A stretch of DNA of 64,000 nt from positions 62,001 to 126,000 of the forward strand of contig NW_026576285.1 of NCBI RefSeq assembly GCF_028641065.1, written 5' to 3'. The translations under genes were made by a program, and so were the position numbers. The notes below the pieces were generated by a model that worked only from the letters and a program-made list of their open reading frames with translations, had not been told where the DNA came from and did no database searches. Shown in pieces: positions 37,525-60,053 of this stretch. The stretch is from Leucoraja erinacea (Eukaryota). Positions within the stretch are counted from its first letter, which is position 1; each line of letters starts with the position of its first letter.

Positions 37525-38003
37525 GAACATAGAATATAGAACAGTACAGCACAAGAACATTCCCTTTGATCCACAATGTTTGTGCTGAACATGATGTCAT
37601 GACCAATTGTTATCTGCTTGCACATAATCCATATCCATCCATTCCCTGCATATTCATGTGACTATCTAAAAGTTTCTTTAATGCCACTATCATATCAGCT
37701 TCCACCACCACCAGCACATTCCAGTCACTCACCACCCTTGGTGTAAAACGCTTGCCCTGCACATCTTTTTCAAACTTTGCCACTCATTGTAAAGCTATAC
37801 CTTCTCTTATTTGATATTTCCTTCCTGGGTAAAAAGTCTGACGGTCGACCCCATCTCCACCCCTCCCAGTTTGATATATTACTGTCAGGTCTCCCTTCAA
37901 TCCCCGACATTCCAGAGAAAACAATCCAAGTCTGTCCAACTTCTCCCTGTGTCTAATGCCCCACTAATCCAGACATCATTCCCAAAGACCTCCTCTGCAT
38001 CCC
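37525..38003 (-). mobile_element. Old CR1 3' remnant overlapping the MHC stop codon and 3' UTR
   Basis: TGCAGAGGAGG..GAATGATGTCTGGATTAG..GGAGAAGTTGGACAGACTTGGATTGTTTTCTCTGGAA..GGGAGACCTGA is a decayed [23 protein letters not shown] segment; TTCTATG-type tail at ~37525-37545. Confidence 0.8.
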
Positions 38004-38205
38004 AAAGGAAGCTGATTGTGCTTCATGGTCACTGCAGTCCTCTCCTGGTCTCTGCTGTTGTCAGCTGGTCCCTGGTTATTGTGATTTTTTTTCCTTTTCC
38101 TCTTCTTCCAGCAACCTATTCCAAGGATGATCCCCAGGAGAATGAGAGGAACAATTGCAGCTCCAGTCACGATCCTAATCTTTATATCATCTTTTGCTGC
38201 CCTCT
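37976..38205 (-). CDS. MHC class I exon 5, connecting peptide, transmembrane segment and cytoplasmic tail
   Basis: Acceptor cctacag|AG; hydrophobic [22 protein letters not shown] followed by basic stop-transfer KKRKRKK; TGA at 37976-37978. Confidence 0.85.
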
Positions 38206-57600: not shown

Positions 57601-60053
57601 CCAGTGGAAGTGGTGTCGGCAGGTTCATTGGTATCATTTAAAAATAAATTGGATAGGCATATGGATGAGAAGGGAATGGGGGGTTATGGTATGAGTGCAG
57701 GCAGGTGGGACTAAGGGAAAAAAAGTTGTTCGGCACGGACTTGTAGGGCCGAGATGGCCTGTTTCCATGCTGTAATTGTTATATGGTTATATGGTTAACA
57801 GGGCCTAAACTGAAACTCAACACAAAATACTGGAGTAACTCAGTGGGTCAGGCAGCATCTCCGGAGAAAAGGAAAAGGTGACGTTTGGTGTCGAGACCCT
57901 TCATCAGACTGAGAGACAGGGAACAGGGAGCCGAGAGATATGAAAAAGTACAATGAAATATATGGACCCCCGATTGATGCAGTGTCTTCACCTGAAACTC
58001 CACCTATTCCTATTTTCCAGTGATGCTGCCCGACTTGCTGAGTTACTCCAGCCTTTTGTATCTATCTTCGGTGTAAACCAGCATCTGCATCAGCAGTCAG
58101 AAGAAGGGTCTCGACCCAAAACGTCACCCATTCCTTCTCTCTAGGGACGCTGAGTTAATCCAGCTTTATTGTCCATCTTCGGTTTAAATCAGCTTCTGCA
58201 GTTCCTTCTTACACTTGTCTCAACTGAAACATCACCTATCCATGTTCTCCAGACATATTGCCTGACCTGCTGAATTACTCCCCTTTTATGCCAATTAACC
58301 AGCATCTGCAGTTTCTTGTTTCCTCATGAATAAGCAGTATTTGTTCTGTGATAAAGATTACAGGCAACACACCAGACAGTGTCAAAGTTCATGTGTTTAA
58401 TTGAGGTGAGAAGGGGCCCCCAGGGCAGAGTTATAAGTGTCTGTTTCACTGTTACCAGAAGAAACATAAGAAGACTAAGTGTGGAATACAGTAACGATAA
58501 AATCCCAAAACACTCCATAGCCAAGGATTTTTGTTTTATATGTTATTATTTTAACAGGGAATCACCATTATATTTATTTTCATCTGATAACAATGGGATT
58601 AAACTTTCAGGACGAGCAACCGATTACAGGTTTGTAATCTCCAATCCTTGATGATTGTCAGAATAGTTAGAAAAGAAGCATTGTGTGGGAAGAAATTGCT
58701 CATCAGATTCCCATTAAATCTTTCCCCCCTCAATTTAAACCTATGTCCTCTGGTTCTCGATTCTGTAATCTGTTGAATGTGTTGCCCTCTTGAACATTTC
58801 CAGATTGAGATTGATAGATTTTTGTTTATTAAGGGTGTAATGGGTTAGAGTTCAGCCACATTGTCTGTGCCGAACATGATGTCAAGTTAAACTCAACTCT
58901 TCATGCTTGTACACGATTCATATCCCTCAATTTCCTGCATATCCACATGCCTATCCTCAAGCGTCTTAAATGTGGTTATCCTCTTCTGGGTAAGTGGTGG
59001 TGGGATAATGGATAGGGTCTGCAGGAGAGTGATGCATGCAGCAAACAGAACAAGACAACACAACATTAAAACAACATAGATTGGTCATTTAATGCAAGCT
59101 GATTTTTACCATCATGTGGGTGTCTAACACCAGCTGAGGAAATCTTGGAGAGGTGGGACACCTACTGCTGCAGAAGACGCTTCTTTATTGAAAGTGCACA
59201 TCACTGGTTTACCTGAATTCTGTCTGAGATATTAGTGCAAGGACAGATTGGACAAACATGGGTTGTTTTCACTTGTATACTGGAGGTTGAAGGGAGACCT
59301 GATGAAAGTGCATAACATGGTGAGAGGCACAGACATAATGGACAGTCACAACCTTTTTCCCAGGGTGGAAATGTTGAAGACCAGAGAACATCACTTTAAG
59401 GTAGGAGAAGCAATGTTCAAAGGAGATGAGCGAGGCGTTGTTTTATGTGGAGGGTGGTGGACACCTGTAATGCATTGCCAGTGGTGGTGGTGGTGGTGGG
59501 AGATATAACAGTTACATTTCAGAGGCTTTTAGATAGGTACATAGATAGGCATGGAATGGGCGGATAAGGATCACATACAGGTAGAGGAGATTAGTTTATT
59601 TTGTTCAGCACAGACATTGTGGGCCGAAGGTAGACACAAAGTGCTGGAGTAACTCAGCGGGTCAGGCAGCCTCTCTGGAGAAAATGAATAGGTGACGTTT
59701 TGGGTCAAGACCCTTCTTCAGACTGCTCCTAAGCTGTATTATCCCATGCACTATGCTCATTATTTACATGTATTCAGTTCTTCTCTTCAATGGATTGCCA
59801 TGGTAACCATAGTATATATAACTTCTCACAGCAGCCTTCACAATTCAGGAATCACCATTACCCAAATGTACATTCAATTCAATAATTCAATGAATACATC
59901 CAAGACAATGAACCCAAGCCAAACACAGGTGCTGTGCAACAACAAATAGAATCAGTATTGTTGTTTTCTCAAAGTTCGCAAGTAGAAGGAGCATTGCTTA
60001 CCAGATGAGACAGTGGCCACACCGTAAGTGTTGAGTAAGGTAAAAAGAAGCAT
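37976..60053 (-). CDS. MHC class I heavy chain, non-classical type; 5 coding exons (60002-60053, 49892-50152, 47170-47445, 40882-41154, 37976-38205), 363 aa
   Basis: Exon lengths 52+261+276+273+230 = 1092 nt give one open frame ending in TGA. Every intron is GT..AG and phase 1, as in class I genes. Domain motifs are listed per exon below. Confidence 0.93.
38492..38629. other. Assembly gap (138 N) in MHC intron 4
   Basis: Run of N. Confidence 1.
38630..39560 (+). mobile_element. CR1-A 3' end + C-rich tract + Helitron-like subterminal sequence (composite element, truncated by the gap)
   Basis: Same module order as 55660-56644; the terminal hairpin is missing. Confidence 0.7.
39901..40005 (+). 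repeat. Perfect 35-bp x3 tandem repeat
   Basis: ACCACTGACTCAATCTGCAAATTAACTATTTGGGA three times, inside an old CR1 remnant. Confidence 0.95.
40140..40786 (+). mobile_element. Two HE1-like SINEs (~40140-40418, ~40473-40786)
   Basis: B-boxes GGTTCAATTC and GGTTCGATCC, conserved core, repeat tails. Confidence 0.8.
40882..41154 (-). CDS. MHC class I exon 4, alpha3 Ig C1 domain
   Basis: Acceptor ttgcag|[41 protein letters not shown]; donor G|GTAAGT; 273 nt. Confidence 0.96.
43146..45167 (-). mobile_element. Composite insert: three CR1-B 3' ends interleaved with short tandem units, plus a Helitron-like 3' end
   Basis: CR1-B ends at ~43146-43420, ~43676-43945 and ~44380-44945; flanking CATAT at 43141-43145 and 45168-45172. 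Confidence 0.8.
45544..46418 (+). mobile_element. Rex1/Babar LINE 3' part (second family)
   Basis: [50 protein letters not shown] and (TTCA)n tail; splits the CR1-A 3' UTR. Confidence 0.88.
46773..47073 (+). mobile_element. HE1-like SINE
   Basis: Matches the SINE at 15058. Confidence 0.8.
47170..47445 (-). CDS. MHC class I exon 3, alpha2 domain
   Basis: Acceptor ccccag|CT; ..[51 protein letters not shown]; donor G|GTACAC; canonical 276 nt. An in-frame alternative acceptor lies 6 nt upstream. Confidence 0.95.
48931..49525 (-). mobile_element. CR1 family B 3' fragment
   Basis: [35 protein letters not shown] tail. Confidence 0.9.
49892..50152 (-). CDS. MHC class I exon 2, alpha1 domain
   Basis: Acceptor ttgcag|[39 protein letters not shown]...PRQRWM...DHWD... 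matches the class I alpha1 pattern (xxHSLxYFYT..P.F..V..LDD.Q..YFDS..PR..WM...YWD); donor A|GTAAGT; 261 nt. Confidence 0.93.
50750..51590 (-). mobile_element. Helitron-like element, 5' part with C-rich tract (minus strand)
   Basis: The start CTATAAAACTCTCATCTTGACCGCTT resembles the 5' ends at 20416 and 52043; low-complexity interior; no 3' end found. Confidence 0.55.
51590..51638 (+). repeat. (GACA)n microsatellite
   Basis: Read directly from the sequence. Confidence 0.97.
51730..56644 (+). mobile_element. Head-to-tail array of four non-autonomous Helitron-like elements (ending 52042, 53113, 54338, 56644)
   Basis: Each ends in hairpin CAGACCC-AAY-GGGTCTG, 8 nt, then CTAG followed by T. Junction CTAG|TC at 52042/52043. 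No TIRs or TSDs. Confidence 0.85.
54452..55342 (-). mobile_element. GC-rich non-coding retroposon nested in the fourth Helitron-like copy
   Basis: AATAAA and (TATTG)n tail at 54452-54475; ATGTC(C)AA-like duplication at the edges; related segments at ~21184-21665 and ~29870-30510. Confidence 0.65.
57150..57796 (+). mobile_element. CR1 family B 3' fragment
   Basis: [31 protein letters not shown] tail. Confidence 0.9.
60002..60053 (-). CDS. MHC class I exon 1, signal peptide [17 protein letters not shown]
   Basis: ATG at 60053, 17 codons plus 1 nt, then donor G|GTAAGC. Hydrophobic leader; its phase matches the alpha1 acceptor. Too short for the ORF track. Confidence 0.8.

Follow-up and report, generated by a model that had tools for sequence, protein, structure and literature searches.

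The stretch of DNA examined here (the window) covers 64,000 nt of the genome of the skate Leucoraja erinacea (GCF_028641065.1, contig NW_026576285.1, positions 62,001–126,000 of the forward strand). It carries an intact, single-copy gene for a non-classical class I heavy chain of the major histocompatibility complex (MHC), referred to below as the window gene, which is spread over five exons of the minus strand and lies at 122,053–99,976 of the complete contig (C1104 of assembly G000). Residues are numbered as in HLA-A2, following the HLA-A2 row of the alignment in the supplement of PMC10751288. The exons, in window coordinates, are:

60002..60053, minus strand: exon 1, signal peptide (17 codons plus 1 nt); a stop lies in frame directly upstream of the ATG, and the donor is GTAAG; single copy in G000
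49892..50152, minus strand: exon 2, alpha1 domain; F7, H59, Q84, H86 and the helix motif GFHGIVKGN; one DNA copy in G000
47170..47451 (or 47445), minus strand: exon 3, alpha2 domain; G97, an unpaired C99, the C101–C164 pair, an NST sequon, L143, R146, W147, L159 and Y171
40882..41154, minus strand: exon 4, alpha3 immunoglobulin C1-set domain, containing LLPNWDG
37976..38205, minus strand: exon 5, connecting peptide, transmembrane (TM) helix, 46-residue tail without a tyrosine or dileucine motif, and stop

All four introns are GT-AG and of phase 1, and the succession of leader, alpha1, alpha2, alpha3 (C1-set) and TM segment on phase-1 exons is the layout of an MHC class I heavy chain. An earlier note on this DNA had described five exons splicing into a 363-aa open frame, and the joined exons do give 1092 nt (363 aa plus stop) with the acceptor at 47445. 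An alternative AG lies 6 nt upstream (47451), giving a product of 365 aa, and is the preferred acceptor of the predicted alpha2 exon because it agrees with the junction of the sawfish orthologue and because two paralogous copies of the exon retain no other AG there.

A public protein model with the source label Leucoraja erinacea (P0001) is identical to the window gene across alpha1 and matches Pfam MHC_I (E 8.5e-23) and C1-set (E 1.2e-14). In two orthologues (P0004 and P0214) a leader resembling that of the window gene is joined to the same alpha1 start, and the alpha1 exon is 73–79% identical in shark and ray orthologues. The AlphaFold2 model of the window protein has a class I fold with one TM helix (284–321) and a mean predicted local distance difference test score (pLDDT) of 85; a second model, made from a 22-row alignment, was poor (pLDDT 67.6). 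The alpha2 donor (47,169–47,164, GTACAC) is weak, and the public models of the skate, Stegostoma and Chiloscyllium are irregular at the same junction. P0001 has a 12-residue insert where alpha2 meets alpha3; most orthologues join the two domains directly, and for this reason the GTACAC donor was retained.

The classical anchors for the peptide termini (Y7, Y59, R84, T143, K146, W147, Y159 and Y171) are largely lost. At these positions the window gene reads FHQLRWLY, compared with YYRTKWYY in UAA-type rows, so that the changes seen by eye in the earlier note (Y7 to F, Y59 to H, Y/R84 to Q, T143 to L, K146 to R, Y159 to L, with W147 and Y171 kept) hold in a proper alignment. Position 123 is alanine. 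Position 86 is histidine, confirming the loss of the N86 glycan site, and the NST sequon reported early in alpha2 is present, as are Q96 and the LLPNxDG motif (here LLPNWDG). The same pattern is found in the 13 sequences that make up the lineage of the window gene (see below). F7 is present in 10 of 10 rows scored, H59 in 13 of 13, Q84 and Q96 in 12 of 12 each, and W147 in 10 of 13, while L143, R146, L159, Y171, G97 and C99 each occur in all 13; N86 is found in 0 of 12, and an NST or NTT sequon in the alpha2 loop in 13 of 13. Apart from W147 and Y171, the anchors are thus lost in all members scored, which, with the rejection of a clade with UAA/UBA (below), shows the non-classical status proposed in the earlier note.

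The apolar character of the groove, also remarked on there, was scored as the mean Kyte-Doolittle value of 35 positions known from the HLA pocket literature. The window gene scores 1.25, compared with −0.16 for random draws of 35 alpha1-2 residues, and a fraction of 0.0012 of 10,000 draws reach 1.25. This control ignores the burial of the groove in any class I molecule, and comparison between lineages is the fairer test. The 13 rows of the window lineage range from 0.98 to 1.45, those of UFA from 0.80 to 1.06 (2 rows), UGA from 0.14 to 0.83 (7), UCA/UEA from −0.23 to 0.41 (7), UAA-type from −0.54 to 0.11 (5) and UDA from −0.77 to −0.46 (3), and on this sequence-based scale the groove of the window lineage is the most hydrophobic among the lineages scored. 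It is also conserved: 19 of 35 groove columns are invariant in the lineage, against 59 of the 145 remaining alpha1-2 columns. Across sharks and rays alpha1-2 is better conserved than alpha3, the identities to the Pristiophorus protein P0004 being 79% (alpha1), 70% (alpha2) and 58% (alpha3). The helix tops are strongly conserved, with glycines at 69, 72 and 76, and the motifs around 69–77 and 152–164 are common to the window lineage and UGA and occur in no other lineage scored. Tyrosine-based (YxxPhi) and dileucine motifs are absent from all 13 tails; a juxtamembrane YxxPhi is present in four of eight UGA models, a fifth match having come from a read-through model.

The supplement of PMC10751288 (2023) contains alpha1, alpha2 and alpha3 rows labelled UAA, UAA-2, UBA, UCA, UDA, UFA, UGA and UHA, and these were compared by eye with genes of the skate genome. 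The window gene matches none of the labelled rows, and by sequence it is separate from every labelled lineage tested. It is not the orthologue of UGA: the letters of the labelled skate UGA match the downstream neighbour of the window gene, the two form separate clades (100/100 each), and both lineages occur in four species. The earlier note had brought up a CD1-like UFA; that is a different gene, on contig C633 (135,838; protein P0145), with identities to the window gene of 33, 23 and 36% in alpha1, alpha2 and alpha3. The labelled skate UDA is the gene at C633:48,944 and falls in a separate clade. The window gene lies outside the 50-row UCA/UEA clade, and an alpha1-2 grouping with it is rejected (approximately unbiased test, p-AU 0.0047); this clade is so named because its members resemble, by eye, the row that carries the UCA label, the supplement having no UEA label. 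No by-eye likeness to the labelled UHA row was seen in alpha1, alpha2 or alpha3 (UHA is W-type-like by our reading). As for classical UAA, the tree test rejects placing the window gene in one clade with UAA/UBA (p-AU 1.4e-5); the gene does not cluster inside UAA, and alignment did not restore its anchors. A mosaic origin, with alpha3 taken from UCA/UEA, is hinted at by the alpha3 tree without reaching significance. Among PDB entries, the best sequence match (E 2.9e-60) is 9CH4, which bears the title shark nonclassical class I UGA and also matches in fold (Z 25.8, root-mean-square deviation 2.3 over 266 residues). The letters of 9CH4 and of 8GM8 (UFA) agree with the labelled nurse shark rows.

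The main tree (IQ-TREE) was built from 38 chosen ectodomains over 272 columns. These rows were drawn from a 146-row FastTree set, for which a length filter kept 145 of 164 proteins, six of these were removed as redundant and seven rows from the skate genome itself were added; CD1, EPCR and named MR1 sequences were not part of the trees. Support is 100/100 for the window clade and likewise for UGA, 84/76 for the pair and 97/97 for the pair plus UFA. From alpha1-2 only, the window lineage groups with UGA and UFA at 99/98. A profile search for orthologues gave 68 matches among 8,000 candidates scored. In a 98-row FastTree, where long branches meet at the join of the window lineage and UGA, 13 rows form the window clade (support 100), with batoids separate from sharks. 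Besides the skate, the clade comprises 12 species: Pristis, Hypanus, Hemitrygon, Mobula birostris, Pristiophorus, Heptranchias, Mustelus, Scyliorhinus torazame, Cetorhinus, Hemiscyllium, Stegostoma and Chiloscyllium. Both the window lineage and UGA are present in the skate, Mobula birostris, Stegostoma and Pristiophorus, which implies that their split predates the divergence of sharks and rays. On the sequence comparisons, the window gene heads a distinct lineage, older than the shark–ray split, within the UFA/UGA group. It shares several features of that group: the alpha1-2 clade, a hydrophobic groove, single or low copy number and MHC linkage (the last via UGA and the sawfish table discussed below).

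The search returned no holocephalan orthologue, which is weak evidence of absence. Four Callorhinchus milii proteins (P0048, P0076, P0226 and P0234) resemble the 'Cmilii_UGA' of the supplement, yet group with neither elasmobranch UGA nor the window lineage; they group weakly with the coelacanth class I protein P0073 (88/94).

The window gene lies in tandem with the true UGA gene, about 60 kb away, downstream on the same contig and strand (span 39,679–3,107 of C1104; alpha1 at 39,679, alpha2 at 13,387 and alpha3 at 3,376). A second UGA copy is found at C732:140,938–113,241. C732 and C1104 are 96–98% alike in blocks over about 70 kb, and C732 carries, at 214,983, an alpha1 of UAA type, while the window gene is missing from its interval 100,001–249,698; the pair represent either a duplicated block or a haplotype without the window gene. 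In G000, exon 1 and the alpha1 exon each have one DNA match. Two near-identical alpha2 plus alpha3 duplicates, with 84–88% protein identity to the window gene, lie on contigs C1132 (64,782–67,274) and C1147 (53,433–51,704). Both carry a stop at the second alpha2 cysteine, and no alpha1, exon 1 or TM exon was found near them in the 30 kb examined of each contig. Each duplicate adjoins an exon of a seven-TM receptor, and P0158 is the public model of one of them. Receptor exons (PF00001 or similar) are also fused to UGA in a skate model and to the window lineage in a Mobula hypostoma model (P0009 and P0203, respectively). In the sawfish table the class Ib cluster contains an array of GPR139-like genes, and the fusions are probably annotation read-through.

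UDA (C633:48,944–61,554) and UFA (135,838–143,836) form a tandem pair of the same orientation. In its sawfish MHC table, PMC10751288 gives LOC127585976 (21.8 kb, plus strand) as the first of four tandem class Ib genes, situated between b2m/brd2 and col11a2/rxrb, and it is the only one of the 10 sawfish MHC-Ib rows with the product name of P0002. Judged from name, span and order only, LOC127585976 would be the orthologue of the window gene, which the 2023 paper would then have listed as a class Ib gene without a name. UDA, UFA, the window gene and UGA could then mirror the four-gene class Ib row of sawfish chr34.

Fragments of reverse-transcriptase-like long interspersed nuclear elements (LINEs), which we take to be of CR1/L2 type, fill the introns and flanks (9,753–12,584, 30,691–32,504, 41,804–44,950, 61,488–63,605 and others). 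A run of 138 N (38,492–38,629) lies inside intron 4 and touches no exon. An Rfam scan of the window gave zero matches. The 600 nt upstream of the gene contain three CCAAT/ATTGG boxes; no match to the interferon-stimulated response element, NF-kB, X2 and TATA patterns used was found there.

The intact gene, its distinct lineage, its kinship with UGA and UFA, the apolar and conserved groove and the lost anchors, as drawn from trees, synteny and alignment, form the ground for considering function. We favour the view, at a probability of about 0.6, that the window gene is a tandem paralogue of UGA in the UFA/UGA CD1-like group, and that its product most likely binds lipid together with beta2-microglobulin and is displayed at the cell surface to a conserved receptor. 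Pairing with beta2-microglobulin is most likely, given Q96, D122 and the LPN motif of alpha3. The groove, which G97 and A123 would open up and which has lost the peptide-terminus anchors, would carry a lipid or long acyl chain, a reading suggested by the nearest relatives, UGA and UFA, being the two reported lipid binders. The near-invariant helix tops, shared only with UGA, suggest recognition at the cell surface by a conserved receptor, probably a T-cell receptor of semi-invariant type. The probable sites of loading would be the secretory path, the surface or early endosomes and not lysosomes, since the tail lacks YxxPhi while several UGA tails have it; CD1a and CD1d differ in sorting in an analogous way. 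A more detailed version of this scheme is possible, and put forward tentatively: the window lineage may be a third lipid-presenting lineage that divides the work with UGA as CD1a does with CD1d, UGA (with its tyrosine motif) sampling endosomes and the window lineage surface or secretory lipids, the shared glycine-rich helix surface being read by related invariant receptors and the free Cys99 perhaps tethering or sensing an acyl ligand. If so, a multi-isoform lipid-presentation system, parallel to mammalian CD1, would be older than the shark–ray split. The earlier note had suggested a lipid presenter or a lineage not yet described. The gene is indeed separate from each labelled lineage tested, and the lipid reading gains from its reported lipid-binding relatives.

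Several results weigh against a lipid-presenting role. RNA depth was zero on the alpha1 and alpha2 exons in all three RNA runs (tissues unknown; 5–25% of each run read), in which intronic LINE pieces drew thousands of reads; another run, X3, contained DNA, from a related organism. In the alpha3-only tree the window lineage is not placed with UGA and leans to UCA/UEA (83/84), although joining alpha3 with the UFA/UGA group is not rejected (p 0.087 and 0.071), and convergence or exon shuffling could account for part of the alpha1-2 grouping. Lipid and peptide binders are not told apart by the fold search, in which chicken BF2, YF1 and UGA tie within 1 Z, and R146, W147 (10 of 13 rows), W167 and Y171 preserve part of the peptide-end chemistry. 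The tail motifs depend on gene models in which a short final exon may be missing. The lipid data for UGA are second-hand: the review PMC12562908 states that UFA and UGA bind lipids like CD1d, citing crystal and mass-spectrometry evidence as a personal communication, and PMC10751288 calls UFA CD1-like from unpublished data. Finally, the window gene shares 17–19 of the 35 groove positions with UGA and is 33–50% identical to it per domain, and at such low identity its ligand need not be that of UGA.

EPCR, ZAG, FcRn and HFE are class I-like proteins that do not present antigen, and the window protein could likewise hold a structural lipid while its helix surface binds a fixed protein partner. Its single copy, the strongly conserved helix tops with G69, G72 and G76, the missing endocytic motif and the lack of exon reads in the three RNA runs would all suit such a role, and FcRn, HFE and ZAG rank next to UGA in wide fold searches. 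These ranks are ties or near ties that say nothing on function, however, and fold Z does not separate CD1 from other class I molecules; in a search of 48,161 fold representatives both models match UGA best, by a margin of 1.0 Z. The position in the MHC class Ib cluster beside UGA, and helix motifs shared with a UGA that has a tyrosine sorting motif, make a non-presenting protein rather unlikely. Presentation of hydrophobic peptides or N-acylated lipopeptides, in the manner of HLA-E leader peptides or the myristoylated ligands of chicken YF1, would account for the retained R146, W147, W167 and Y171, and the backbone fits peptide-binding BF2 and YF1 equally, the YF1 entries carrying N-acylated ligands. 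Nevertheless, none of the lineage rows scored retains Y7, Y59, Y/R84, T143 or Y159, three of 13 have lost W147, and the nearest lineages are reported lipid binders, so that this alternative is judged quite unlikely.

Still less probable is covalent capture of a small electrophilic metabolite or acyl group by Cys99 on the groove floor, for which the Schiff base at MR1 Lys43 offers a parallel. The cysteine is invariant in the lineage (13 of 13 rows; phenylalanine in seven of seven UGA rows) and has no partner cysteine in alpha1, but a small apolar residue that widens the pocket explains it equally well, the similarity to MR1 is generic, and the accessibility of the thiol is hypothetical. UGA rows have an unpaired alpha1 cysteine of their own at position 31, in the strand after the DG turn, a different place from Cys99. 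The skate copy might also be silent or decaying, its open frame a leftover, in line with the empty exons in three of three RNA runs, the weak GTACAC donor and the several public models of the lineage that are truncated or mis-spliced. This is extremely improbable, since all exons and splice sites are intact, the branch of the window gene is short (0.034 in FastTree, compared with 0.15 for a broken duplicate) and 33 of its 35 groove positions are identical to those of the sawfish protein. Lipid binding with beta2-microglobulin and display to a conserved receptor remains the favoured explanation.

Studies of MHC evolution have yet to settle whether the presentation of lipids goes back as far as that of peptides; from cartilaginous fish, the evidence so far comes from UFA and UGA. 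A third lineage of single-copy genes, retained in all major groups of sharks and rays sampled, whose groove is the most apolar of the set and whose tail differs, would mean that this system already had diverse isoforms. The literature searched, which excluded subscription papers and the primary papers on UFA and UGA, contained no description of the window lineage. PMC12562908 lists only UDA, UFA and UGA as single-copy lineages, and its wording of 'single- or low-copy' could cover the window gene as a UGA subtype. The odds are roughly even that the papers behind 8GM8 and 9CH4 already describe it, in which case the significance is smaller.

Compared with known systems, the window gene shares with classical UAA (PDB 6LUP) and UBA the alpha1-alpha2-alpha3-TM layout, Q96, W147 and Y171, and differs in six of eight anchors, the lost N86 and its single copy, as well as in the rejected shared clade. 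UDA and UCA/UEA belong to the same MHC class Ib cluster (PMC10751288), and the alpha3 of UCA/UEA is 45% identical; their grooves are polar and their clades separate. Tetrapod CD1 (CD1a-e and chicken CD1-1) resembles the window protein in its lost peptide anchors, its apolar groove, the glycine of the human CD1 row at the floor position that aligns with HLA 97, and fold (Z 24.2 to chicken CD1-1 and 22.2 to CD1d), whereas sequence identity is 21–26%. The CD1-type Pfam domain PF16497 scores 22.7 bits in the window protein and 29.8 in UGA, both below the cut-off of 35. UFA (8GM8) shares the alpha1-2 clade, a hydrophobic groove and, in the skate copy, the absence of N86, but it is a separate gene on C633 with 23–36% identity, has lost W147 and Y171, and is without the shared helix motifs. 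UGA (9CH4) is nearest by sequence and by fold, a tandem neighbour and likewise of low copy number, with G97, L159, A/I123 and the helix motifs GFHG[IL][IV][KR]G and MN[KRH]YFKxL[LI]ExDC in common. The two are reciprocally monophyletic with both present in the same species: UGA keeps N86, Y59 and K146 and has F99 and often a YxxPhi tail, whereas the window gene has H59, R146, C99, a moved sequon, no tyrosine motif and a more apolar groove.

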